Virus record (IMG/VR): IMGVR_UViG_3300021082_000058
Location: 1 to 43,614 of that record
DNA from: a virus
Lineage: Duplodnaviria > Caudoviricetes
Length of the DNA: 43,614 nucleotides
Reading direction: 5' to 3' (one strand)
The notes beneath the pieces were generated by a model, which was given only the letters and a program-made list of their open reading frames with translations, had not been told where the DNA came from and did not search any database. How positions within the stretch are numbered: position 1 is the first letter of the stretch; each line of letters starts with the position of its first letter. This document shows, one piece after another, positions 932 to 36,853 of the stretch. The position numbers and the translations under genes are program-made.

Positions 932-3604
932 TTATTCCGCCCGCACGTCGATCTCGTGCTTGCATTCTCCCCAGGAACGCCCGTACACAACGTCAGCGAC
1001 AAAGGGGATGTTGTAGGTGAGTGGGTCGCCCAGCGAGAAAGGCGCATGATCGAGCGTCGGGAACGGACACCGAGCCCACTCTGGCAGTCGCTGCTCCATT
1101 ATGTTGCGCACGAGGTCACCTGTCTGTTGAATAACGCTGTCCTTGTTCTTACACTCCATTACGATCGAGTCGTGTACCGTGAAGAGGATGCGCTGTTTCT
1201 TCGGATCGAACTCTGCGTCCATGTGGATGAGCGCATTGAGTGTGAGTTGCGCTGCAAATCCCTGGATCGGTGAGTTAACGATCTGACGCTTGATTCCCGC
1301 TGAGTCATGCTTGAACGCGAGAGGCCACCTGCGACGATTGCCGAGAGGTCCTTCGACGTACTTGAGCTTGAAGCAGTACTCTTTGAGGACTTCCATCCAG
1401 GCGAACAGATCGACATAGCCTTCCTGGAACTTAGCGAAGTATGCTGCAATCTCATTCTCGCCCCACGACTTGCCGTACTGTTCAACCAGGTTGTCCATCT
1501 CAGGACCAGTCGCGATTGATTTCCACCCGCGTCCGTAGACGACTCCGAAGTTCATGCATTTGGCGAGGTATCGTTCGTACTTGGTGATATCCTTCTTAGG
1601 TTTTCCGAAGAGAAGTTCTGCCACTTCTTGATGAATGTCTGCTCCATTTCGATAGGCGTCGATGAGAACTTCGTCTTGCGAAAACAGACCAGCCACTCGA
1701 AGCTCCAGTTGAGAATAATCAGCTTCCAGTATGACCCAACCCTTGGTTGGTATGTAGGCTTTCCGAATATCGTATCCAACGTGTGAAACGTCCGGGATGT
1801 TTTGGAGATTCGGATTGGAAGAAGACAGACGGCCTGTCGCAGTACCGTGGAGATTGAAGTCACTTCGCACTCTCCCGTCTGAGTCAACTCGGTCGAGGAT
1901 CCCCTGAATGTACGTGCCGATGATCTTAGATTTAACACGGTAGGAGAGGATAAGGTTGATCAATTTCGCTGCTGATGGCATATCCTTACTGCACTGTCTG
2001 GCAAGCACCTTGAGCGTATCCGCGTTCGTCGTGACTTCTCCCTCTTCCCTCTTGTACGCATAGCGACCTACATCCTTCGGCATTGCGAGACCTAGGCCAC
2101 CCTCGTCAGTAGCGTTGTAGAGAAGCACCTCGACCTGTGCTGGTGAACCTGGATTGAATCCTTCTTCAGCCTTGTTAGGATTCATCTCAACCCAGTTGGT
2201 GTACTGCTTGACGAGTTTCCGGATCTGCTTCATCTCTGCATCCACTGTCTTTTCGAGCGTTACTTTCATCTCGTTCAGGTACTTCAAGTCGACAGGTGCA
2301 CCAGTCATCTCCATGTTAGCGAGAGCGAGAGATGCAGGTACAAGATATTTCTCATGGTGCGTGAGCAAGCGGAATGATTCGTCGTCTGCCTCTTTCTGCA
2401 GGATTGGATACAGACGCGCTGTCGAGTGGCAATCCTCACCCATGTAGCGCATCATTGCTTCCCACATGACCTCTTTTCTATCCGGGTCAGGAGCAGGTTG
2501 CATGTCCGCAGGTAGAGGTATGTAAGGCGCAACCACTGATACGTCAATGTCCCTTCCGACTTTCCTCCCACGCCAAAGTTCATCTGGTGGATTGACAGCC
2601 TGCCTCCAACAACTTCTTGCCTTCTCTGGATGTGCTTCGCAAAACTCTGCAATGTACGCTGTGCGTGCTGCATCGCCAACATCCTTCCGATAGTACTCCT
2701 CAAGCCAATCTTTCATCTTGACTGACTTCTGAGGCGCGTCAAAGTAGAGACGCTGCATGAGGTCAAGGCTTAGGTGTCGATAGCGATTGAACGGACGCTC
2801 ATCGAGTGCCCAGCCAATGAGCATGGTATCTGCCAGGGTCGTGAAGTTAAATCGTCCGAACTTTTTCCAGAGGTGCTGAACGTCGAATTTTAGATTATGG
2901 AAGACGAACGTGCCCTTGTACTTCTGGAGAAATGTATGTACTTCATGCCGGATAAGTTCTTGAGGTACGACGACTGCGTATCCTTGATCACCATCTGTGA
3001 GTGCACAGAATCCTATACCGAGGATGTCGGGCTCAACACCTGGCAGCCATGCCTTGTATGGAGACAAGCCTGTTGTCTCAATATCAGTGCCAAGGAAAGA
3101 CGCACCATGCAGGTCGCGCAAGAGGGAGAGATCTTTGACACGTTCTACCAGATGAATCTCGCAAGCAGGTTGTACCAGAGGTTTCTTATTCTCGATGAGT
3201 TTGCAGATGTCGAAGCAGATGTCTCTATAGAACTCAGGATCTTTGACCATTGTGGTGGTTGGGAACGTGACAATAGAGAAAATGCTTTTTCTACTTCCTT
3301 GAAGTTTATGGAGGTAGCCTCTACCACGGACCTTGCTGACAGTGATGCCTTTTTCCAATCCGAAGAAACATGCTGCAGCGACTGAACCAGAGCAGAGTAC
3401 TTTGTCGAAGGATCTTGCTGCATGATGCACCTTCTCTGTTTGTGCAAGCCACTGCTCAGGCTTGATCTTCTTCACATCTGCTTCTGACATGGTAGGAAAG
3501 ATAGAGACACTCGTCCACTCAACTCCGTACGCCTGGAAGATAGCGTCGAGTGTGTAACCTGCTACTGGGGTAAGAGGTCTATCTGTCAGGACAAGGATCT
3601 TCAT
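932..3604 (-). CDS. polA: family A DNA polymerase with 3'-5' exonuclease and N-terminal UDG-like domain
   Basis: ExoI DIETTG, ExoII HNLKFD, ExoIII YMGED; TATGRLSSSNPNLQNIP; motif A ADYSQLELR, motif B RYLAKCMNFGVVYG, motif C TVHDSI. Confidence 0.97.
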   Translation of the reverse strand: MKILVLTDRPLTPVAGYTLDAIFQAYGVEWTSVSIFPTMSEADVKKIKPEQWLAQTEKVHHAARSFDKVLCSGSVAAACFFGLEKGITVSKVRGRGYLHKLQGSRKSIFSIVTFPTTTMVKDPEFYRDICFDICKLIENKKPLVQPACEIHLVERVKDLSLLRDLHGASFLGTDIETTGLSPYKAWLPGVEPDILGIGFCALTDGDQGYAVVVPQELIRHEVHTFLQKYKGTFVFHNLKFDVQHLWKKFGRFNFTTLADTMLIGWALDERPFNRYRHLSLDLMQRLYFDAPQKSVKMKDWLEEYYRKDVGDAARTAYIAEFCEAHPEKARSCWRQAVNPPDELWRGRKVGRDIDVSVVAPYIPLPADMQPAPDPDRKEVMWEAMMRYMGEDCHSTARLYPILQKEADDESFRLLTHHEKYLVPASLALANMEMTGAPVDLKYLNEMKVTLEKTVDAEMKQIRKLVKQYTNWVEMNPNKAEEGFNPGSPAQVEVLLYNATDEGGLGLAMPKDVGRYAYKREEGEVTTNADTLKVLARQCSKDMPSAAKLINLILSYRVKSKIIGTYIQGILDRVDSDGRVRSDFNLHGTATGRLSSSNPNLQNIPDVSHVGYDIRKAYIPTKGWVILEADYSQLELRVAGLFSQDEVLIDAYRNGADIHQEVAELLFGKPKKDITKYERYLAKCMNFGVVYGRGWKSIATGPEMDNLVEQYGKSWGENEIAAYFAKFQEGYVDLFAWMEVLKEYCFKLKYVEGPLGNRRRWPLAFKHDSAGIKRQIVNSPIQGFAAQLTLNALIHMDAEFDPKKQRILFTVHDSIVMECKNKDSVIQQTGDLVRNIMEQRLPEWARCPFPTLDHAPFSLGDPLTYNIPFVADVVYGRSWGECKHEIDVRAE

Positions 3605-3831
3605 AGCGCCTCATCGAGAGTAGCGAGAGCGGTGAAGCCATTGAAGCCGGGATCATCTCCTGCGTGAGACTCAGGCATCGAGCATCCACAGTAGTGGTCG
3701 TGAAGTTCGGCCAGTCCGTCCACCACAGCCACGATCTGCGGCCAGCGTGGATCGTCAGCCAGATGTCCAACTGGACCATCTTCTACCCAAACCTTCGCTG
3801 GGTTCGCTTTCAATTTTTCTGATGCGCTCAT
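3601..3831 (-). CDS. hypothetical protein with HDHYCGC..H possible metal-binding motif
   Basis: ATGA overlaps at both ends (coupled to DpdA-like gene and polA). Confidence 0.7.
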   Translation of the reverse strand: MSASEKLKANPAKVWVEDGPVGHLADDPRWPQIVAVVDGLAELHDHYCGCSMPESHAGDDPGFNGFTALATLDEAL

Positions 3832-4670
3832 CTTGCCAGTGTCCTCATGTCAGTACCCTCTGCTGCTTCTTGAAAGAGCCAAGAATTGTTACGAGCGTAT
3901 TTCTTTTGGCGTGGTGTGAACGTCGAAGAGAAGTAGTAATGAGGCCTAGTGGGGTACTCGGTGTCTAGTGACTCGAGAAGATCCACACCTGCGAGTGCAT
4001 ATACGAATGGCTTTGCTGAATCAGTTGAACGTATCCACTTGTGCTTTGCAGCGATGACTTGCAAGTTGCGTAGGTTACGCATCCATCCGAGCATGTGCAC
4101 TGACATCTTAATTCCACTCTGTGCCAATGTCTCACGGATAGGAACAACATGTTCTTCTAGCAGTTTCAAGACACCTCCGTCCCATGCATCGTAGTCCTTC
4201 GACACGCCAATGACGAAGTCACGACGAAGAGAATATTTGCGAGCGCAGTATTGGTGTATCTGCACAAGGCAGTTAAGGCAGATCAACCAGTCAGATTCAT
4301 CTTTACCTTGAGGCACGTACATGAACGCAGGAGAGTAGGCATCCAAGATTTCGCGTGACCCTCCTTCGAACCACTCCTCGTGCGCAGCGAGACACGCTTC
4401 GATTGTTTTCTCTGCGTTGTCGAGTACATCTGGCACAACGATCTCTTGAGCGTCGAGTTCGAACCCAGCCTTGAGCAGTGATACTGGATCTTGCCCTGCA
4501 CCATGCTCATGTGCTGAATTGTCGAGGACGAGATACGCGCCTGACTTTCTCTGTGCTTTGTAGTGCCTCTTGTATGTTGGCTTGTCGAGGAGATGAGTCA
4601 ACAACAGATGGAATGGACCTGACCCGAATTCGTCAAGATGCTTGATCGGAGGAATAAGCGCTGCCTTCAC
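3828..4670 (-). CDS. dpdA: DpdA-like 7-deazaguanine DNA transglycosylase (TGT-like TIM barrel)
   Basis: TGT-like motifs LDNSAHE, PDVL, VPQG, IG, HMLG, RSTDSA; lies in que cluster; GTG 4670 overlaps upstream TGA (GTGA). Confidence 0.8.
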   Translation of the reverse strand: MKAALIPPIKHLDEFGSGPFHLLLTHLLDKPTYKRHYKAQRKSGAYLVLDNSAHEHGAGQDPVSLLKAGFELDAQEIVVPDVLDNAEKTIEACLAAHEEWFEGGSREILDAYSPAFMYVPQGKDESDWLICLNCLVQIHQYCARKYSLRRDFVIGVSKDYDAWDGGVLKLLEEHVVPIRETLAQSGIKMSVHMLGWMRNLRNLQVIAAKHKWIRSTDSAKPFVYALAGVDLLESLDTEYPTRPHYYFSSTFTPRQKKYARNNSWLFQEAAEGTDMRTLAR

Positions 4671-5440
4671 GACTCGCTCCATACTGAGTACGCAGTTGTT
4701 GGCATGAGGCCATCGTTGTAGAGATGCTTGATCTCCCTCTTCACGCTGGCGATGCATGTCTTGATTCCGAAGTAGCGTGCCCACTCAGCAAACCTGTCGA
4801 GGATCGAGATCATCATCCGTACTTCAGGTCCCAACTTGGACATGTCTGTCTCTACGAACTGACACTGTGGTGTCGGTGTCATTGCCCATGCGCGTCCGAA
4901 GGGCTTCTTGAGAACGTATGTCCGTTCAGGTCGCATCTGTATGAACTGTAGTTGGGGTGCTGAGATGCAAGATAGAGGAGCATTTCGATAGTTTGCGCAA
5001 CCGAGGCCCTCGACACCGACTCCGCGTCTAAAGGAAGTGAGAAAGTCACAGATAGGGTTAGCGTTTTGGTCGTTGGTATAGATGAGCTTTCTCTTTCCAT
5101 TAACGATCACAGTCCTCTCTTCGAACCCCTTTTGGTGCTCGACGTTGAGGAACTCTGATGGTGTGTAGTCGAGTGTGAACTTCTGGCAACATGCTGTGCA
5201 TCCAACAGTGCAGATAAACGTGCGGAAGAGAGATGGCGTTATAAGAACTTCACGTACGGGGGTGTCGTATGTGCGAACCCCCAGGAGACGCCCCGAGGTC
5301 AATCCCCGGGCCTGATAGGTGACCGTATGCGGGCTTAACAGCGCTATCTGTCCCAGAATCTTCTCCACTGAGTCTGCGTGCCCCACTGAGTTCTTCCTTG
5401 ATACCTCCAGGCGCCGTAGATCCTGGACCTTCTTGCTCAT
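4667..5440 (-). CDS. CxxxCxxCC cysteine-cluster metalloprotein (YkgJ/DUF3109-like); candidate preQ1-modifying enzyme
   Basis: CTVGCTACC, then CDFL, CANYRNAPLSC and CQF; coupled to DpdA-like gene; start 5440 has GAGG RBS but is uncertain. Confidence 0.7.
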   Translation of the reverse strand: MSKKVQDLRRLEVSRKNSVGHADSVEKILGQIALLSPHTVTYQARGLTSGRLLGVRTYDTPVREVLITPSLFRTFICTVGCTACCQKFTLDYTPSEFLNVEHQKGFEERTVIVNGKRKLIYTNDQNANPICDFLTSFRRGVGVEGLGCANYRNAPLSCISAPQLQFIQMRPERTYVLKKPFGRAWAMTPTPQCQFVETDMSKLGPEVRMMISILDRFAEWARYFGIKTCIASVKREIKHLYNDGLMPTTAYSVWSES

Positions 5441-5873
5441 GTGCGATGATCCTCTTAATGTACCAGATTGCTTTTTCAAGACTCTCCGTCCCTCCTTTGT
5501 GTCGCCAACGTAGAAGGTATTTCAGTGCGTTGCCTTCTCTGTAATCCAGATTGAACATCTCGATAAGGTCGATGACCTCGATAGGTCCATGAGTGTAGTG
5601 AGGTGGCGAATTAACGAGATCTATTGCCTCTTTGAAAGAGGAAGTGTCACCAGCAATCTCTGCTGTTGCAGTACCAGACACTACAGCTACTGGATGTGTT
5701 TTTGCTACAGTCGTTCCCACAACTCTGTAACCACGACGTTCGAGTTCTCTCTTTGCTTTGGTGTAGAGTTGTGTACGTTGTGGATTATCAGCAAGTTTGA
5801 GAAGAACTTTAATCTGTGTGTCATTCCACTTCTCCAGCATCTCTTGACTCGTTGCTATTTTTCCCATCACCAT
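5250..5873 (-). CDS. DUF3310 (SaV-like / T7 gp1.7-like nucleotide kinase) domain protein
   Basis: DLVNSPPHYT..IEVID..GNALKYLLR..KGG.ESLEKAIWY signature. Confidence 0.85.
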   Translation of the reverse strand: MVMGKIATSQEMLEKWNDTQIKVLLKLADNPQRTQLYTKAKRELERRGYRVVGTTVAKTHPVAVVSGTATAEIAGDTSSFKEAIDLVNSPPHYTHGPIEVIDLIEMFNLDYREGNALKYLLRWRHKGGTESLEKAIWYIKRIIAHEQEGPGSTAPGGIKEELSGARRLSGEDSGTDSAVKPAYGHLSGPGIDLGASPGGSHIRHPRT

Positions 5874-6159
5874 CCTGTATCACCTCCTCCATCACTGGTG
5901 GCACTGTTCCTACGTCTGGAAACTGACCAAGATCTTTGTGGAACGTGTCTCTCAATTCTTGATCGAAGCCCAACTCATACGTATGAGCCTCACGAGGGTC
6001 GATGATGACTAGCTTGTACTCAATGCAGACGTTCTCTTCATTGAGAACAGCGTAGAAGCCTACCTCACATCCATGGAACGTCGTCTTGTGAATTGTCGGA
6101 GGAACAGGACGAGGTTGTCCGAGAAGAGGAACTTCCATGTGACTTGGAGGAACACTCAT
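5821..6159 (-). CDS. hypothetical protein
   Basis: ATGA overlap with queC stop; 112 aa. Confidence 0.65.
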   Translation of the reverse strand: MSVPPSHMEVPLLGQPRPVPPTIHKTTFHGCEVGFYAVLNEENVCIEYKLVIIDPREAHTYELGFDQELRDTFHKDLGQFPDVGTVPPVMEEVIQDGDGKNSNESRDAGEVE

Positions 6160-6911
6160 GTTCTTTCCGATCTAGAGATGTTATGAACAACCACATTTCT
6201 CTCTGCTGTGTTTCCCTGACCAACATCTCTGTACTTATCGAACTCGTATTCAATTGGATCTTTGAGCCCGTTCTCTTTGAATGCCTCGAGGCGAGCAATA
6301 CACGTAGGACACTGTCCACATGCAGGGTCGCGGCCTTCATAGCACGACCTCGTAAGGTAGAGAGGAGCACCAAGTGTTGTACCAAGGTGAATGATCTCTG
6401 CTTTTGTCTTGTACGTGAACGGACACACTAGACGTACCTTGTGGTAGGTGCCAATGTAGATAGCGTTCTGCATCGCACCAATGAACTCTGGAGTGCAATC
6501 AGGGTACGCCCAGTTATGAGCATCTTCTCCATGCATACCTGCATAGATAAGATCTGCGTTCATGTCAAGTGCACCTGATGCTGCAATCGAGAGGAATGTG
6601 CCATTACGGTAAGGCACATAGGTAGGAGAAGGTCCTTCTGATGCTTGCAGTTCTTCATATGTGAGGTGTGGCATCTCAGCGTTTGGATTCATCAACACAG
6701 ATGAGCCTGCACCAAGAGAAATTGGTACCACATGGTGATCCAACCCATACTGAGATGAAATCAAACCTGCAGCATCCAACTCCATCTTTGAATGTCTTTG
6801 TCCGTAGTTAAAAGAGATTGCAGCAACAACCTCATCACACTGTGTCTTAGCGAGTGCGAGTGCAACACATGAATCAAGTCCCCCAGAGAGGACAACAACA
6901 GCCTTACTCAT
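6156..6911 (-). CDS. queC: 7-cyano-7-deazaguanine synthase
   Basis: VVLSGGLDS, FNYGQRH, TYVPYRN, YPDC, SCY..CGQCPTC; GGGGAG RBS before ATG 6911. Confidence 0.97.
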   Translation of the reverse strand: MSKAVVVLSGGLDSCVALALAKTQCDEVVAAISFNYGQRHSKMELDAAGLISSQYGLDHHVVPISLGAGSSVLMNPNAEMPHLTYEELQASEGPSPTYVPYRNGTFLSIAASGALDMNADLIYAGMHGEDAHNWAYPDCTPEFIGAMQNAIYIGTYHKVRLVCPFTYKTKAEIIHLGTTLGAPLYLTRSCYEGRDPACGQCPTCIARLEAFKENGLKDPIEYEFDKYRDVGQGNTAERNVVVHNISRSERT

Positions 6912-6997
6912 TTGCTCCCCTTCCATACTGCAACTGCATAGTAAGCTAGCGTCCACGCTTCAGTGCCGAGAACGAGTGCTACCCACTGCCAAGTCAT
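6908..6997 (-). CDS. 29-aa hydrophobic peptide
   Basis: MTWQWVALVLGTEAWTLAYYAVAVWKGSK*; ATGA overlaps at both ends. Confidence 0.6.
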   Translation of the reverse strand: MTWQWVALVLGTEAWTLAYYAVAVWKGSK

Positions 6998-7209
6998 TCA
7001 ACGGCCTTTGAATGATCCTTGGGACCACCTGAATACTGATCGAGCGCCTCTCCAAAGATCTCAGCAAGATCCTTGAGCCTTACAACTGCCTGACTACCTT
7101 CGATCTCTTCACTGGCCTTTTCCTGCACGCGGTTGAGAACCAAACCACAGAACGATGCAACTGCCTCTGATCCCTTGGGCAACTTGTTCACTTTCTTTTC
7201 CTTGGCCAT
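6994..7209 (-). CDS. hypothetical protein
   Basis: GAGAGGA RBS, TAATG overlap with folE. Confidence 0.7.
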   Translation of the reverse strand: MAKEKKVNKLPKGSEAVASFCGLVLNRVQEKASEEIEGSQAVVRLKDLAEIFGEALDQYSGGPKDHSKAVE

Positions 7210-7793
7210 TATCTTCCTCTCCTTGTGTGGCCGAGCAGGGTCAAGAATTCTTCGCGTGACCCTTCGGCAGGATCTTGAAAGTCACCTGTTACAGCAGACG
7301 TCGTCGTCAGCGTCCCAGGTGCTTGAACGCCGCGCATGGTCATGCAGAAATGCTCTGCTTCTACGACAACTATAACTCCTCTCGGCTCTAGTCCTTCAGT
7401 TAATGCATCACAGATCTGTCTTGTGAGACGCTCTTGAATCTGCAATCTGCGTGCAAAGACATCTACTACTCTCTTCAACTTGGACAACCCAACGACACTG
7501 TCTCTTGGAATGTATCCGATGTGTGCGTATCCTGCAAACGGCAGAAGATGATGTTCGCAAAGAGAGTAGAGAGGTATGTTCCACTGGCAGACCATTTGAT
7601 CAGCACCCTCTGCTGGGAATATTGTCCAAGGTAGTGGTTCACGATATCCACGTGTTAGTTCTTCGTACGCGCGTGCGACACGTGCGGGCGTCTCACGCAG
7701 TCCTTCGCGGGATGCATCCTCGCCTATAGCATCGAGGATCGTTGTCACAGCATCGCGCACAATGCGTTCTTTATAACTGGGATTAACGGCCAC
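7209..7793 (-). CDS. folE: GTP cyclohydrolase I
   Basis: [41 protein letters not shown]. Confidence 0.97.
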
Positions 7794-8232
7794 GTTTATT
7801 CAACTCTCTGAGACGTGTCACAATCTCAGCTCTCCTTTGGTTAACTTCATCAGGTAGTCCTTTGTGCCCTGTTGCTTGTGTCATTGGATTGATCTTTGAT
7901 TCTTGCATTTCGATAAGAAGTTCAGCTTGTTTTCTTTTGCAGATAAGATGTGGTAGAACTTGCTTAAGAACAACAAGAGAACTTCTGTCAGATATAATCC
8001 ACCTAAACTGCTCTTTCCACTTGGGATGGTCTTTATACTGCCCGCCACTTGCACCTGGGTGAAATCTATGAAGTGCTTGAATAGTCTCTAGACAAGTCAT
8101 CGTGACAAAAACAGATACTTGGTAAGAAGGACTCTTCCAGGAACGAGCTTTATTCATTCCGATTGTCAAAGAACCCTCACCATCAATGATTCCAGCGACA
8201 TACGCAACATGGGGTTTATCTTCCTCTCGCAT
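7783..8232 (-). mobile_element. free-standing single-motif LAGLIDADG homing endonuclease gene
   Basis: YVAGIIDGEGS motif, W/K..KQA tail typical of the family; overlaps queE end and folE start; flanked by ATAAAC direct repeat. Confidence 0.88.
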
Positions 8233-8983
8233 TGCCCCATGATAACACATGCATCTGTGGAAGGACACGAACACGTCTCATGCTCTGATCGTTGGCGAGT
8301 TTCTCCATGAGCCATACCATCTTGTCGAGAACCTCACTCCGAGTTTTTGAGAGAGGAAATGGATTGATTCTGTTTTCAACTTTTCCTTCTGGATTGCTAA
8401 CTGTGGGAAGGAAAGGATCTTCATTTCCAACTGACAAGAACAACTCGAACTGAGGGAACGTCTTGTGTACCCATTGCGCGTAGTAGTAATCTTCGTCGTC
8501 AAAGACAACCACCTTCAGGTACACAGCGTTGTCATGTCGACTGGAGAAGTGAGCGAGAAAGTCTTTCAGCACATCATGCCTTGTTGGATTTTGTGACGAT
8601 GGGGGTTTCGGTGATACACAAACCTCATCGACATACCCAAGCCAATCTCTCCACACTGTACCTTGTGTCTCAACCATCACTGAGTATCCGTCACCGATGA
8701 GGTACGCGGTCAAGAGGGAGAGATCAAGGAGTGCAGGATTGCCACCTGAATAGACAACCCATAACGCCTTGGAAGACAGTTGACGTACTTCCCTCCAAAT
8801 GTCTTTCTCTGTCTTCTGTGGCAACTGTGCAACGAGCTCAGGAAGAACTGCGTGAGGCGAGTCACACCAAACGCATCTGTAGTCACATCCACCAAAGCGG
8901 ATGAAGTGGCAGGGAGTGCCAATGCGGCGACCTTCCCCTTGAATTGTAGGTCCGAAGATCTCTGCAACACGAAAGCTCTTCAC
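8216..8983 (-). CDS. queE: 7-carboxy-7-deazaguanine synthase (radical SAM)
   Basis: EIFGPTIQGEG, CDYRCVWCD, SGGNP, VETQG, VSPKP, LPQMH; GTGA overlap with queD. Confidence 0.96.
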   Translation of the reverse strand: MKSFRVAEIFGPTIQGEGRRIGTPCHFIRFGGCDYRCVWCDSPHAVLPELVAQLPQKTEKDIWREVRQLSSKALWVVYSGGNPALLDLSLLTAYLIGDGYSVMVETQGTVWRDWLGYVDEVCVSPKPPSSQNPTRHDVLKDFLAHFSSRHDNAVYLKVVVFDDEDYYYAQWVHKTFPQFELFLSVGNEDPFLPTVSNPEGKVENRINPFPLSKTRSEVLDKMVWLMEKLANDQSMRRVRVLPQMHVLSWGNARGR

Positions 8984-9414
8984 GAGATCACGTACCGCGC
9001 CATGCACTTCGGTGTCTCCCACAGTTCAACCATTACAGAGTGTAGTTCAAACATCTCCATACATGTGTACGCGAGATACCTTGCCATGTTCTCTGCTGTT
9101 GGATTAAACGGAAGGATAACTACTCCTTCGTCAACCCAGAACTCTTTCGTGTTTGGAACTACGAGTGGATCAGCATTCCAGATGAGCATCCGGTGGTCCC
9201 ACTCGTTGACAAGTTCCTTCAGGTCACCGAAGTCAACAACGAATCCTGGAGGTTTAACGACGCCTGCAGCCATGATGTGCACTCTGTACGTGTGTCCATG
9301 CAAACGTGCGCACTTGCCCTTGTGTCCAACAATGCGGTGCCCTGCGTCGAATGTCATCTCATACGAGATCTCAGAATGATCTGGTAGCATGTCGAATGCC
9401 TCTCTAACGCTCAT
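8980..9414 (-). CDS. queD: 6-carboxytetrahydropterin synthase
   Basis: FDAGHR, C.RLHGHTY, VDFGDLK, DH, NPTAEN, LWET. Confidence 0.96.
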   Translation of the reverse strand: MSVREAFDMLPDHSEISYEMTFDAGHRIVGHKGKCARLHGHTYRVHIMAAGVVKPPGFVVDFGDLKELVNEWDHRMLIWNADPLVVPNTKEFWVDEGVVILPFNPTAENMARYLAYTCMEMFELHSVMVELWETPKCMARYVIS

Positions 9415-9848
9415 GCCACTGCCTCGATTGAAATTCCACCACGAGACTTCTGCGTGAGCACCACACGGGTATTCTCTTCTTCGCTACCTGTCACTTCGAT
9501 TACCTGGTCACGAATGAACACAGCGAGTGTCTCACAGAACAGACCTGGTGCGTTTCCACTCATCGTGTTCTCATGGAGATTGTTGAACCAGATCTTGAGA
9601 CTTTTCGACTCGATGAGTTTTGGAGAATCCTTCAGAGTGATCTTGCATGTGTAGTAATCAGGCTGACCGGTGACCGGACACTTGGCTACTACTTCGTCTG
9701 ATGTGTAGTGGACAAGAGTGCATCCAGGATTGTCGAATGTCTCTAGTCCAGTGTATGCACCCGAACCTTGAGATGAAAGCGCCGCAAATGTTGGCGGCGC
9801 CTCCACCCCAGATCCGAGGAACCGGTGTTCTTGTTCCCCGGAAATCAT
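9411..9848 (-). CDS. queF: preQ0 reductase, QueF (unimodular T-fold)
   Basis: CPVTGQPD catalytic motif, QueF motif ESKSLKIW, C-terminal RGGI. Confidence 0.88.
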   Translation of the reverse strand: MISGEQEHRFLGSGVEAPPTFAALSSQGSGAYTGLETFDNPGCTLVHYTSDEVVAKCPVTGQPDYYTCKITLKDSPKLIESKSLKIWFNNLHENTMSGNAPGLFCETLAVFIRDQVIEVTGSEEENTRVVLTQKSRGGISIEAVA

Positions 9849-13875: not shown

Positions 13876-14251
13876 GTTGCTCTCCCTTCACTCGTACGAC
13901 TACGTCAGTGACAACTGTTGCGGTCACCCACGCGCCGTCTTTGTGGGTCGTTACTTTCAGACCCATTTGATGTGCCACCCGTCGGAGTTTTTCTCTTGAG
14001 TAGTTACCAAGCCAGACATGTGTTGCTTTGCCCATCGTGTGGAACTGCAACGTGATAGAATCTCTAGAGGGTGAGAGCCGCTCCATAAAAGCCTGATTAA
14101 GCTGACTCTCGATGAACCGATCACCGAACTCTGACACTGACTTGCGCCAAGCATAGTACGCATGCTGGAACGGCATGTCAGAGGGGGAGATCAACTCACC
14201 TTCTGACTCTGAGAAATACAGATCCTGAGCGAGATACTCTTCGTCAGTCAT
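13835..14251 (-). CDS. hypothetical protein
   Basis: 138 aa, overlaps neighbours in operon. Confidence 0.7.
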   Translation of the reverse strand: MTDEEYLAQDLYFSESEGELISPSDMPFQHAYYAWRKSVSEFGDRFIESQLNQAFMERLSPSRDSITLQFHTMGKATHVWLGNYSREKLRRVAHQMGLKVTTHKDGAWVTATVVTDVVVRVKGEQHGTVSTESVSSSS

Positions 14252-14609
14252 CTGGAGTCAACACCGCTGTGATACTGACACGTTCGCCAGACACGACCTG
14301 GAGAACTTCATGATTTGTCTTTGCGAGCGCGACCAGAAAGACACCTTCGTTTGGCGCAATGCGCAAGACAATTTCTCCACCCTCTTCAGGTCCTTCAACG
14401 ACAGTGATGACCAAGAAATCTTCATCTGTCAACCTGCCATCGCTATGAGGCCTGATTGAGGCTCCAGGGGACAGCAAGTTCCGTCGCAGGTTACCCATGT
14501 GCTTCATTGGGCGTCCTGCTACAGCACTAACTGCTTCCTGCAGCCTGTCTGTATACGCAGCGAGAGTAGGATCATCAAGTTCCCACTCAACTCTGAAAAG
14601 GCCATACAT
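14244..14609 (-). CDS. 2OG-Fe(II) oxygenase (prolyl-hydroxylase-like)
   Basis: PHSDG (HxD), EGGE, HEV, GERVSI (RxS). Confidence 0.8.
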   Translation of the reverse strand: MYGLFRVEWELDDPTLAAYTDRLQEAVSAVAGRPMKHMGNLRRNLLSPGASIRPHSDGRLTDEDFLVITVVEGPEEGGEIVLRIAPNEGVFLVALAKTNHEVLQVVSGERVSITAVLTPDD

Positions 14610-19064: not shown

Positions 19065-19093
19065 ATCATAGTACCTGACACCAGGGTTGTCAA
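19065..19093 (-). promoter_or_regulatory. strong sigma70-type promoter
   Basis: TTGACA-N17-TATGAT upstream of DUF932. Confidence 0.8.
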
Positions 19094-24386: not shown

Positions 24387-24653
24387 ATGGCAAGACGGAC
24401 AGCACGACAGATCAGAATTGATGCAATGGAGGAGGAAAGGATCAAATCAAGTTCAACAATAAGGGAGATTAACAGACGAACGTATGAGAGAAATCAACGG
24501 ACGCGGGGTCCAAAACTCGCTAAGGTTGATCTCAAAAGACAGACAACGTGTTGTTTAGATAAAGAGCGTGAACTACCCAAGGCGTTCAGGCAGTGTGTTG
24601 ACTGTCCAAAACTGACCGAGGTGGGGTCTGAAACTAACGGGGGTGGGGTTTAA
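24387..24653 (+). CDS. basic hypothetical protein with CC..CxxC
   Basis: GGAGG RBS; 88 aa. Confidence 0.65.
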   Translation: MARRTARQIRIDAMEEERIKSSSTIREINRRTYERNQRTRGPKLAKVDLKRQTTCCLDKERELPKAFRQCVDCPKLTEVGSETNGGGV

Positions 24654-24724
24654 CCGAGGTGGGGGTTATAACCGAGGCGGGGTTCATCTACACAGGGGTG
24701 GGGTCTACTGAGGAGTAGGGTCTG
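24615..24724 (+). repeat. G-rich degenerate tandem array (consensus ~ACCGAGGTGGGGT), 5-6 copies
   Basis: Copies at about 24615, 24637, 24653, 24671, 24692. Confidence 0.8.
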
Positions 24725-25159: not shown

Positions 25160-25198
25160 GAGGAGGTCTGTTACTCGATGCAGGCCTCCTCTTTTTTC
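25160..25198 (+). terminator. intrinsic terminator
   Basis: GAGGAGGTCTG/CAGGCCTCCTC stem followed by T7. Confidence 0.85.
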
Positions 25199-25220: not shown

Positions 25221-25424
25221 AGAAGCTCAGAGCAAGACTTGGCTCATAACCCCCGGAAAAAATTCTGGGTCCCCAGAAGCTCAGAGCGCCAACCGGCTCA
25301 TAACCCCCAGACCTAGAGAACTGTAGGGCTGGCTTTACAAGGGGCATAAGGCTAAGGCTGATTCCTCTGTAAGGCTGAGGCTGGGGTGCGTGTAAGGCTG
25401 ACGTCAGGGTAGGTGTAAGGCTGA
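25221..25424 (+). repeat. iteron-like arrays
   Basis: AGAAGCTCAGAGC-N7-GGCTCATAACCCCC twice (25221, 25275); TGTAAGGCTGA three times at exact 23-bp period (25368, 25391, 25414). Confidence 0.85.
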
Positions 25425-25712
25425 GCCTTGCAAAACCCGTAACTCGGTCTGCAATGAACGGGTGGGTAATTGCGTTCGCCATTTCACAACGCATTACAGC
25501 GAAAACCTCGCAAACCCGCAACTAAAATCGTGGGTTGGAATTTCGATCGAATTAACTGGGGGCAAAACATATCTGGGGCGATAAGCTATTCTAATTGATA
25601 ATCCGCCGGGGTTGTGCGATAATGAAATGTTCCATCCGATCCTTGAAAACTGAACGTGTGAATCGCCGTTTGTAATTCACTCTGCAATTACGACGACGAA
25701 AGGGCACCTCAA

Positions 25713-26024
25713 ATGGGGTACGAATACACCGTCCACAAATATCGTGATCTCTCACGATGGGAATTTCGGTTTTGGGATGACAACGATGGCGATATTGATT
25801 TGCGCCACATTGTTGTCTGGGATACAACCTATGGCAAAAGTTTTTGCGTCATATCGTTCACTGAACTGGACAACGAAATGGGTGCAATAACTCGCGTCAG
25901 GGAATACGCTGAGATTGACGCAGACGCAAACCTGTCTGATGTTGAACTCAAGCGCATTTGGATCGACGCTATTACAAATGGCATTACGTGTGGGTTACGA
26001 CGAACCCGACGACATTACGCGTAA
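25713..26024 (+). CDS. hypothetical protein (early island)
   Basis: AAGGG RBS; 103 aa. Confidence 0.65.
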   Translation: MGYEYTVHKYRDLSRWEFRFWDDNDGDIDLRHIVVWDTTYGKSFCVISFTELDNEMGAITRVREYAEIDADANLSDVELKRIWIDAITNGITCGLRRTRRHYA

Positions 26025-26089
26025 ATAGGTTTTTGTAACGGCGATCACACGTTCGGTTTTATGCTTACAAATAATTAATCCAAATTTGG

Positions 26090-26119
26090 TTGACCTTCAT
26101 CGGCAATCGGATGTAATGT
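26090..26119 (+). promoter_or_regulatory. sigma70-type promoter with AT-rich upstream tract
   Basis: TTGACC-N18-TAATGT preceded by AAATAATTAAT. Confidence 0.5.
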
Positions 26120-26164
26120 ACGACATGTCATCAACAATGGTGACGACGACGAAAGGGGAACACA

Positions 26165-26494
26165 ATGGCACGCACGACACCCACGAAGGTTTGCACCTTC
26201 ACCGGGAACGTCCTACCCGCGACACGCGAAAACTTCTACGCGGACAAGTCGCAGAAGGACGGCCTCTCACCTTGGTCGAAGCAGGGCGAGGCGTCGTACA
26301 ACAAGGCTTACCACGCCGCGTTGAAGCGCCTCGGCGTGACTCGGGCACGCGACCTCGATGATGCAGGGCGCGTGAAGTTCAACAAGGCGATGGTCGCCGC
26401 CAAGGTGAGGATCGCACGCAAGAGCAAGGCATCGACGCCGACGACGCCCAAGGCGCGCACCTCGCGCAAGCGCATGACGAAGGCCTCGGCGTAA
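26165..26494 (+). CDS. basic DNA-binding-like protein with degenerate Zn-finger-like motif
   Basis: KVC..FYADKSQKDGLS pattern lacking most Cys; K/R/T/A tail; GGGGA RBS; GC3-rich codons. Confidence 0.75.
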   Translation: MARTTPTKVCTFTGNVLPATRENFYADKSQKDGLSPWSKQGEASYNKAYHAALKRLGVTRARDLDDAGRVKFNKAMVAAKVRIARKSKASTPTTPKARTSRKRMTKASA

Positions 26495-26508
26495 CACATC
26501 GACAAAAC

Positions 26509-26532
26509 GGGGGCGGTCAATACGACGCCCCC
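26509..26532 (+). terminator. hairpin after basic protein gene
   Basis: GGGGGCG..CGCCCCC stem. Confidence 0.45.
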
Positions 26533-26552
26533 AAACGATTTTGGAGGCACAA

Positions 26553-26798
26553 ATGGACACGAAAACACCCCTCGCTGATATCGACAACGACGATCTGATT
26601 TATGTTGAATTCGCTCGATACACGGAGCAGGAATACCTTGACGAATTGGCGCGTGTGTTGCGTATTCAGGGCGCGAATGTGACGACGGGATTGGATCTCA
26701 CGTATTGGTACGACAGAGAAAACCACATTAGGGAAATGCGACGACTTCAGGAGGTGTCGGCGGACACGCAAATCATCGACGTTTCGGAGGTGCAATGA
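26553..26798 (+). CDS. hypothetical protein (early island)
   Basis: GGAGG RBS. Confidence 0.7.
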   Translation: MDTKTPLADIDNDDLIYVEFARYTEQEYLDELARVLRIQGANVTTGLDLTYWYDRENHIREMRRLQEVSADTQIIDVSEVQ

Positions 26799-27064
26799 TG
26801 TCTGAATTGGAGTTGCAAAGGGTTGCGCAATCAGGGGCATATGCGCGTGCCGAAAGGTCATCGGATTATCCCTTGCGCCGTTACACGGCGTTTATTCGGT
26901 ACAATTGGGGCGATGGCGACGACAATTCGAGCATAGAGGAAATTGACATTGACGCACGCGACGACACCGACGCACGCGTAATTGCATCGGCGGCATTGGC
27001 ACAGGATTACGAACCTGGAGGGCGAATCATTCGCGTTGACGAAAGGATAGGGTGGTACCTATGA
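26795..27064 (+). CDS. hypothetical protein (early island)
   Basis: GGAGG RBS, ATGA overlap. Confidence 0.7.
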   Translation: MMSELELQRVAQSGAYARAERSSDYPLRRYTAFIRYNWGDGDDNSSIEEIDIDARDDTDARVIASAALAQDYEPGGRIIRVDERIGWYL

Positions 27065-27417
27065 AGTACGGTATTGGATCGCTAATTGGGGCGATGATGG
27101 TCGGCATGATTATCGGCGTTTTGATCATTGGGGCAATCATCGTCGATGTGCAAGGTGCAAATCGGCGCGACGATGCTGAGGGGATTGCGCAATGCATTTC
27201 GGAGTACGAATACACCCATCCCAGGGCAAATCGGTTCAATAACCTGGTGAGGGCAATTCGGTGGTGTAACGTGATTGACAGGGCGGTCGCGCATGAGTGC
27301 ATTACGCCATGCACGGTGATATTGCCGAAGGATACCCTTGAGGATGAATTCGGCATTGATTACGGGTGGCGCAACCGTCACACTTCAACTGTCGATGTGT
27401 ACGTGAGGAGGCCGTAA
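27061..27417 (+). CDS. membrane-anchored hypothetical protein
   Basis: N-terminal TM helix; ATGA overlap. Confidence 0.7.
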   Translation: MKYGIGSLIGAMMVGMIIGVLIIGAIIVDVQGANRRDDAEGIAQCISEYEYTHPRANRFNNLVRAIRWCNVIDRAVAHECITPCTVILPKDTLEDEFGIDYGWRNRHTSTVDVYVRRP

Positions 27418-27851
27418 TGGCACGCATACTTGTGAACATTGGCGACGAACTTTTTGTCAGGGGTAAATTGTACGAGGTGATGGGTGATGGCGGCGATGAC
27501 CTCGTGCTTAGTCGGGTGGGATTGTGTGAGGCATGTCACTTGAATACGGGGGATGATTTTACTACCCCATATGGCAATTTGTGCGCACCATGTATTGAGC
27601 GTGCAATGGAGGGTTATGTGTTGCAACGGGCAATGCAACATGTGATGTCCAATGATCCCCGTGTAATAGAGGTTATGCACATCATGGAGCGTGTTGACGG
27701 TGAGGCACGTAAAAGCAATCAACCTTTTGTTGATTTTCATTCATCCTCCATTGACACAGCGTACGCGTGGCGAGCCGATGAATGGACGCAAATTACACGC
27801 AAGTGGATTGGGGCAATCAAGGATGTATTGGATGCGCGCGAAACGCTGTAG
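27417..27851 (+). CDS. hypothetical protein with CxxC..CxxC zinc finger
   Basis: GAGGAGG RBS, TAATG overlap; CEAC and CAPC. Confidence 0.7.
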   Translation: MARILVNIGDELFVRGKLYEVMGDGGDDLVLSRVGLCEACHLNTGDDFTTPYGNLCAPCIERAMEGYVLQRAMQHVMSNDPRVIEVMHIMERVDGEARKSNQPFVDFHSSSIDTAYAWRADEWTQITRKWIGAIKDVLDARETL

Positions 27852-28289
27852 CACATACACGTAGGCGTGTGATAAGGGCGTGCTTAAAAACCACGCCTTT
27901 ATCATGGCCTATTGTTGTCAGATATGCACACATGAATTGTAACAGCGCTTCCCCGCCCTCTACCTGTCCCTCTCTCCAAAAGCGAGAAGCGTGTATCCCC
28001 ATGTATATGTGCTGTGTAATTCAACCTTGTCCATTGTCGCCCCCATATCCCCCACACCTATGTATATCTATCCCTTAATGTGCAGCAAATTTAATTTCAA
28101 CTTTTCGAAGGCAATTAAGGGCAGGGGGCCATCCGGCCTGTCTCTCCGAGGCAGAGGGGGGGAAGCGCTTGGCAGCGGAGATCTTCTATAGGAGGTTCTA
28201 GTATCTTAGTATCCAGTAAACGGTACACAGGTGTAAGAGAGGTGTTACGATCCCGTGCGTACAGTTCAACCCGAAGAGGGGGTGAGAGA

Positions 28290-28622: not shown

Positions 28623-28630
28623 GGGTGACC

Positions 28631-36490: not shown

Positions 36491-36853
36491 ATGCTTGATA
36501 AGAGAAAGTTACGGCGAATCAACTTGATTAGGATGCTTGTTAGGGCAGGGTGGAGTCCTCCACGACCTGATGATAGGATCCTGGAGGAAATCACTGACGA
36601 CATAGAGCGTCTGACAAAGAGGAAACAAGATCCGAACACACGCGATACGACAGCGACGAATGAGTTGTCTGATTCTCTTATACGTTGTCTCCTTCTCATC
36701 GCTGAGGGATACACAGATGCAGAAGCGGCGAAACTTCTCGGTATCGGGATGGAGACAGTGCATAGTCAAGCGAAAGATGTATCAAGGAAGCTTGGTGCGA
36801 AGAATCGACCTCATGCAGTAGCAATCGCTTTTCGTAAGGGGATTATTAACTGA
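36491..36853 (+). CDS. LuxR-type HTH regulator
   Basis: LS..CLLLIAEGYTDAEAAKLLGIGMETVHSQ..KLGAKNRPHAVAIAFRKGII. Confidence 0.88.
   Translation: MLDKRKLRRINLIRMLVRAGWSPPRPDDRILEEITDDIERLTKRKQDPNTRDTTATNELSDSLIRCLLLIAEGYTDAEAAKLLGIGMETVHSQAKDVSRKLGAKNRPHAVAIAFRKGIIN

Follow-up and report, generated by a model that had tools for sequence, protein, structure and literature searches.

Why would a phage clear a few trinucleotides from one short part of its genome? The question is raised by the window analysed here, a 43.6-kb contig of an uncultured phage (Duplodnaviria; Caudoviricetes; the whole 43,614 nucleotides of IMG/VR record IMGVR_UViG_3300021082_000058), in which a first-pass annotation, made by eye, had described an AG[ACT]-poor island at 25430-28130. 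In sliding counts along the window, AG falls into a sharp trough, and the maximum-likelihood segment of a change-point fit, 25451-28140 (~2.7 kb, unstranded), is nearly identical to the region seen by eye. Counted on both strands, AG before A, C or T (AGH) occurs 86 times in this segment, whereas the remainder of the window predicts about 280 sites. All three words are lost, namely AGA (26 observed, 124 expected), AGT (27 and 79) and AGC (33 and 78), whereas AGG is kept at a normal level (85 and 96), as the annotation held; its tally of 15 AGG among 21 AG dinucleotides in 26521-27060 is exact for the plus strand. The reading we favour, to which we give a probability of about one in two, is that the phage marks its own guanines at AG[ACT] and that the island is kept low in this mark for first expression.

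Base composition does not account for the trough. GC content is 51% both in the island and outside, GA drops only to 0.79 of expectation and, after correction for local composition, AGH depletion scores a log-likelihood ratio (LLR) of 82.7; when the remaining genome is block-shuffled 40 times, no shuffle scores above 4.8. Words of the AG strand (38 observed, 144 expected) and of the CT strand (48 and 138) are lost symmetrically, and this depletion of both strands places the cause at the DNA level and rules out an RNA-level one. Coding and non-coding DNA are both affected, as had been noticed by eye. The six open reading frames (ORFs) of the island hold 60 AGH sites, compared with 162±10 (minimum 132) in 2000 synonymous recodings with genome codon usage and 156 expected with uniform codon usage, so that the trinucleotide ratios and codon controls suggested with the annotation put the depletion far beyond the effect of recoding. 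The same ORFs contain 63 AGG, compared with 51 in recodings, and 10 of 10 control small genes lie near or above AGH expectation. Non-coding island DNA has 33 AGH per kb, compared with 104 elsewhere.

The depletion is partial, with ~30% of the AGH sites left in the island, even though synonymous choice could clear every one of them from the six genes. Density is lowest at 26000-27500, the longest AGH-free run is 26064-26231, and counts climb again from ~27900. AATT, which the annotation called common, occurs 27 times with 4 expected (both strands). The view that AATT is in excess only because AG is lost finds partial support: six words with two AGH neighbours rise by log2 1.30, but words with a single such neighbour show no greater rise (log2 0.34) than those lacking any (0.47). 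The further claim, that sites elsewhere in the genome are enriched for protection, held for AGA, with an observed/expected ratio (O/E) of 1.51, and failed for AGT (0.96) and AGC (0.90). AGH accounts for 19.5% of the Gs in the phage.

Relatives point the same way. Fourteen IMG/VR genomes that carry the DpdA family of the window (a predicted guanine transglycosylase, described below) were scanned, and a strong AGH island is present in three, each time beside terS, the gene for the terminase small subunit: G001 (LLR 86.5), G006 (100.6) and G009 (67.0). G007 has a weak, AGA-centred island in the same place. Mild dips (LLR 20-43) in five others concern GA (G010, G011, G013, G016) or AG (G014); we rejected those in G010, G011, G013 and G014 as support because they are mild (densities of ~0.5-0.75 times that of the genome) and coincide with one or few genes, for example that of a tail protein; the dip of G016 was likewise left out. 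No dip was found in G008, G012, G015, G017 and G018, of which G008 and G018 are fragments and probably lack the island region. Nine further dpdA fragments (G019-G027) have no match to a terminase or to i2, the second island gene, and are uninformative. Separately, the more distant G010, G011 and G013 show a genome-wide GA excess (O/E 1.34-1.48) that is missing from single genes. The depletion of the island is real, conserved and probably selected.

What could the avoided words mean to this phage? Genes for a guanine modification lie on the minus strand of its leftward replication arm: a DpdA-type transglycosylase related to DpdA3 (3828-4682), a DpdM-like protein with a CxxxCxxCC motif (4667-5479), QueC (6156-6956), FolE (7209-7793), QueE (8216-9022), QueD (8980-9414) and a unimodular QueF (9411-9848; E 3e-11, below the curated cut-off), with folE, queD, queE and queC, plus queF, all within 6 kb. 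A structure model of ORF 3828-4682 (pLDDT 94) has a TGT-type TIM-barrel fold, the fold expected of DpdA. Its top three matches among 48,161 chains are DpdA 7UI4 (Z 15.6, rmsd 3.9, 234 aligned), ArcTGT (15.6) and bacterial TGT (15.3), and the next unrelated barrel follows at Z 13.9; a sequence search against solved structures gave no match. D54 (LDNSAHE) and D221 (STDS) are invariant in 33 homologs and, by position, may be equivalent to Asp95 and Asp256, the reported catalytic aspartates of Salmonella DpdA (PMC10164549). Over its full length, the profile of the ORF aligns with the immuto phage DpdA3 (probability 98.5%, 245 columns, E 3e-15), with hidden Markov model scores of 55.6 bits for the immuto protein and at most 3.0 for those of CAjan, iggy, Dp-1 and phiSM; the iggy DpdA has no detectable profile similarity to it (E 0.19). 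Placement in the DpdA3 subfamily is by this one comparison, at ~25% identity, and the DpdA tree is too weakly supported for mapping motifs. We thus regard the protein as a DpdA-fold enzyme nearest DpdA3, for which base exchange into DNA is predicted from sequence and model.

The DpdM-like protein matches PF03692 below cut-off (E 0.001) and the neighbour of dpdA in phiSM with 29% identity (tblastn); like DpdM, it has the CxxxCxxCC motif and adjoins dpdA in a queF-positive cluster. By the pathway rules given in PMC10516641, the modified base would be dPreQ1 or mdPreQ1. A scan of 69 ORFs of the window and 36 of G001 detected no family of DNA methyltransferases. A 2OG-Fe(II) oxygenase-like ORF (14244-14609) has no match in relatives. 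G012 and G014 have dpdA, queC and queF and no clear folE, queD or queE, which suggests that they use host precursors.

Regional avoidance of a measured modification motif is found in phage iggy, in which 97% of GA sites are reported to be modified, or ~16% of its Gs (PMC10484667). Of all 2- and 3-mers, GA is the one most strongly depleted locally in iggy, with 22 sites where 83 are expected at 59901-124, a mostly non-coding zone of MN029011.1 (59901-60628 plus 1-124). In the text covered, PMC10484667 makes no mention of this zone. Published motifs include GA, GA/GGC and CxGCxG, and Salmonella DpdA is described as modifying G in CAGCTG, where it stands in an AGC context (PMC10164549). As negative controls, 80 loci of the terminase large subunit (TerL) led to 22 longer records, of which 13 were scanned in full; a DpdA-profile match is present in none of the 22, and folE in one. 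The 12 phages without folE or a DpdA match, distant from the window phage (7 of 12 are low-GC) and not its sisters, reach best LLRs of 10.2 (AG), 10.1 (GA) and 7.3 (AGH); one of them has a CGC dip with an LLR of 30. The annotation had tied the island to the phage's own guanine modification, and this is upheld indirectly, by the DpdA-fold enzyme, the preQ1 pathway, the island kept by terS in relatives and the avoidance of measured GA in iggy.

The most conserved island gene is i2 (26165-26494, plus strand; 109 aa), which is predicted to bind DNA. It resembles the small module found at the N-terminus of HNH/EndoVII proteins (fold leads only, TM ~0.5) and carries a basic tail, and so is a candidate DNA-binding starter. 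Scanning metagenomes with i2 gave 19 loci: three are the window, G001 and G006, four are distant, low-GC and without depletion, and 12 represent nine distinct phages. Around i2, five of these nine are depleted (AG O/E 0.36-0.61), two are intermediate (0.74 and 0.80) and two, L271 and L263/L264, are undepleted. The island of L267 lies beside terS and holds 28 AGH sites (194 expected), and i2 is common to phages down to ~50% TerL identity.

In two of the metagenome phages, purging is more extreme and sits in a different unit. Directly before terS, L271 has a 650-bp unit (6255-6905) with 1 AG where 80 are expected and 6 GG where 98 are expected, and L141, which was found by TerL, has a unit before terS at 4030-4650 with 2 AG (84 expected), 7 GG (97 expected) and a 649-bp AGH-free run. 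Each unit consists of a promoter and an i2 paralog, and these paralogs and all seven homologs found contain zero Gly and zero Pro; the ordinary i2 copy in both phages is not purged of AG or GG. The joint loss of AG and GG points to a G:C pair as the shared or target element. No contig joining AG- and GG-free units to a dpdA gene was found. At 1500-3900, L141 also has several units of promoter and gene, with many CCCTAAGGGA-like repeats between them. In L264, positions 1-2050 carry the repeats of the window, i2 and the right-border element without an AGH island, and with a short GA/AG-poor patch at 1526-2050; this locus is possibly a natural control.

The window runs from a leftward replication arm through primase, a helix-turn-helix (HTH) gene, repeats and the island to terS, terL, portal and capsid. 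Upstream of the island, on the plus strand as are the repeats, promoter-like sites, ORFs i1 to i6, terS and right-border element named below, are a terminator-like hairpin (25160-25191; consensus match only), two AGH-rich 37-nt repeats with 54-nt spacing (25221-25311; similar in G001), which lie outside it, and four TGTAAGGCT-type repeats with 23-nt spacing (25345-25428; AGC on the minus strand), which form the left border and align in G001 and G006. On its left side, the island comes after the last of the TGTAAGGCT repeats (25414-25428), as the annotation had placed it, and its right edge was also well judged, the island ending at 28140 and terS starting at 28625 (to 29221). A sigma70-like promoter with an extended -10 (TTGATA-17-GATAAT; 25595-25623) has a counterpart in G001 and precedes i1 (25713-26024; 103 aa, no family, homolog in L260). 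Before i2, a promoter-like element read by eye (TTGACC-18-TAATGT; 26090-26119) falls within the longest AGH-free run, and L267 has a similar one ahead of its i2. Then come i3 (26553-26798; 81 aa, no family), i4 (26798-27064; 88 aa), i5 (27061-27417; 118 aa, hydrophobic N-terminus) and i6 (27417-27851; 144 aa, Cys motifs), the last three with orthologs in G001. The right-border element (28118-28139), a G-rich run followed by a ATCCGGCCT-like sequence, aligns in the window, G001, G006, L267 and L264 and is a candidate packaging or end signal. A 183-bp contig at 27976-28158, between two variant sites, has a depth of 16.7 compared with ~5.5 in one of four runs (X3), and this stretch is possibly a short terminal repeat or pac site. 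Elsewhere, G-rich repeats of the ACCGAGGTGGGG type occur at 24497-24707 and in G001 too, and a sigma-factor-like HTH gene with no match in G001 is inserted in the structural region (36491-36853).

How might these parts work together? The preQ1 pathway and the DpdA-fold enzyme would write a 7-deazaguanine mark mainly at the G of AG[ACT], and the 2.7-kb cluster upstream of terS would be kept low in AGH on both strands, likely by selection. The incoming island would be nearly ordinary DNA, readable first by host RNA polymerase, and may serve as an immediate-early unit. If efficient reading of the marked genome requires a factor produced beforehand from unmarked DNA, i2 is the strongest candidate. 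The marked base would be the G of AG, and both AG and GG are lost in L141 and L271. In vitro, the RNA polymerases of E. coli and B. subtilis are reported to transcribe almost nothing from DNA with bulky 7-substituted deazaguanines (PMC4838386).

Several points weigh against this explanation. The same study reports that an elongation block was not seen with bulky C7 groups (PMC4838386), so promoter recognition alone fails to explain the purge of gene bodies. Good sigma70-like promoters lie unpurged outside the island, such as the strong TTGACA-17-TATGAT at 19093 (minus strand; upstream of a DUF932 gene, conserved in G001 and not AGH-free), which fits with their later use but does not prove it. 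The DpdA3 subfamily is described as replacing all Gs (PMC10516641), and a context-specific island argues against complete replacement, or for a second step. L263/L264 share the layout of the window and i2, but have an AG O/E of ~1.0, and L141, L267, L271, L263/L264 and other metagenome fragments stop short of the dpdA region. Given how dissimilar its DpdA is, iggy is an analogy across subfamilies, and it is the only one of two phages with a measured motif to show clear depletion: CAjan, reported to carry dPreQ0 at GA and GGC (PMC7544227), has a dip of 13 GA plus GGC sites, compared with 44 expected, over 350 bp (LLR 15), near its own background. No comparable island was found in Dp-1, Rosebush, Youna2, PaMx25, phiSM or immuto, with Youna2 and PaMx25 counted as deazaguanine phages by gene content only.

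Since DpdA3 enzymes are reported to replace every G, the AGH context may belong to DpdM. The DpdA3-like enzyme would then put preQ1 at most or all Gs, a second step, for instance methylation by DpdM, would act in the AG[ACT] context, and the island would avoid the second mark only. This agrees with complete replacement by the closest characterised enzyme, that of immuto, and with the four closest genomes, where dpdM tracks island strength (present with the strong islands of G001, G006 and G009; no match in G007 with its weak AGA-centred one). Beyond these it does not, since G010, G011 and G013 have dpdM yet no AGH island; furthermore, iggy avoids its motif with a single-step mark, mdPreQ1 is reported as minor in phiSM (212 vs 3790 per million; PMC10516641), and the number of genomes is small, which makes this version doubtful. 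Alternatively, rather than aiding RNA polymerase, the island might evade modification-dependent (type IV) restriction until inhibitors have been produced. GrwAB is known to restrict deazaguanine phages, the escapers of which mutate dpdA (PMC12137116), and such escape would account for whole gene bodies purged on both strands and for proteins free of Gly and Pro. We consider it a real rival, though an unlikely one, because the ~30% of sites left would probably suffice for such a nuclease, the remaining genome is still exposed and no island protein is similar to a known inhibitor.

The island always adjoins terS and its right-border element is conserved, as if proteins of packaging, ejection or replication needed a zone free of the mark at a genome end or origin. 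Assemblies L002, L003 and G001 begin within ~150 bp downstream of that element, L264 retains only a non-coding patch there, and the iggy zone is mostly non-coding. A binding site would not need 2 kb of purged codons, however, and the iteron-like repeats are AGH-rich and outside the island. Phages of the T5 and SPO1 type hold early genes in a long terminal repeat; the contig depths of four runs, at one value per contig, show no doubling across the island. We rate the reading of a mark-free end or origin as quite improbable. Slightly less credible still is a host attack on AG/CT words of the first-entering DNA, unrelated to the phage's own mark: it would produce the symmetric DNA-level depletion, and AGH is tied to the phage enzymes by inference, yet the avoided word varies by lineage (AGH, AG plus GG, GA), equals the measured own motif in iggy, and no island occurs in the 12 non-modifying controls. 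Recent import from an AG-poor donor, the case that the annotation itself had named as refuting, is largely refuted and the least probable of all. Island gene content does turn over among relatives, and the mild dips of G010, G011, G013 and G014 map to one or few genes, as imports might. However, four-fold-site divergence from G001 is 41/73 = 0.56 for the island genes and 0.49-0.59 for six core genes, an equality which argues against recent arrival. The island is also syntenic in relatives, neither absent from them nor unusually similar, has the same borders there, shares i2 down to distant TerL relatives, and is depleted in non-orthologous genes and spacers alike. Summed over the readings that share it, a link between the island and the phage's own mark is likely; the purpose of a low-mark island is less certain.

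In the main text of the mostly open literature covered, we found no report that a phage avoids its own modification motif in one region, and modification tracks of iggy or CAjan in supplements could show gaps of this kind. Tentatively, and with less confidence than we place in the reading of the window itself, we speculate that base-modifying phages pattern their own mark by sequence, with an unmarked start-up sector adjoining the packaging genes and a conserved small DNA-binding protein of the i2 family through which the marked genome becomes readable; such pressure could strip all Gly and Pro from that protein, and the avoided word would report enzyme specificity (AG[ACT], or AG plus GG in sister phages). 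If true, protective base modification has a cost, which is paid by redesigning one region, even at the protein level. Modification motifs would become predictable from sequence only, with iggy as a testable case with public nanopore data, and new motifs (AG[ACT]; AG plus GG) are predicted for an uncharacterised DpdA3-related clade, a family thought to be non-specific. The i2 family of small proteins would be a candidate for explaining how transcription of heavily modified phage DNA gets started.

Among known systems, iggy (DpdA1-type, dPreQ0 at GA; PMC10484667) resembles the window phage in having FolE, QueD, QueE, QueC and DpdA and in the local depletion of its motif in one segment upstream of a small-gene and terminase arm. 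It differs in the motif, in a zone of ~850 bp that is mostly non-coding, and in a DpdA not detectably similar by profile. CAjan shares motif-specific, post-replicative G exchange and a short non-coding GA/GGC dip, but its dip stays near background and it lacks a multi-gene island. Cellulophaga phage phiSM (dPreQ1/mdPreQ1; PMC10516641) has the same predicted product set, with QueF and a CxxxCxxCC protein beside dpdA, whereas its enzyme is of the DpdA1 type, its modification level is low and its GA dip is weak (LLR 10-13). Flavobacterium phage immuto_2-6A, in which DpdA3 is reported to replace G completely by fdPreQ1 (PMC10516641), has the closest characterised transglycosylase and the genes from FolE to QueF. 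The two enzymes share ~25% identity, however; immuto has DpdN where the window phage has DpdM, and no near-free island occurs in the 160 kb scanned (best 133 of 221 expected GA). In T5 and T7, restriction sites are avoided in the first-injected DNA. The island is like these phages in its regional, sequence-encoded avoidance in an early or, here, putatively early segment, and unlike them in its candidate target: their avoided words are those of host restriction, whereas that of the window phage would be its own mark.

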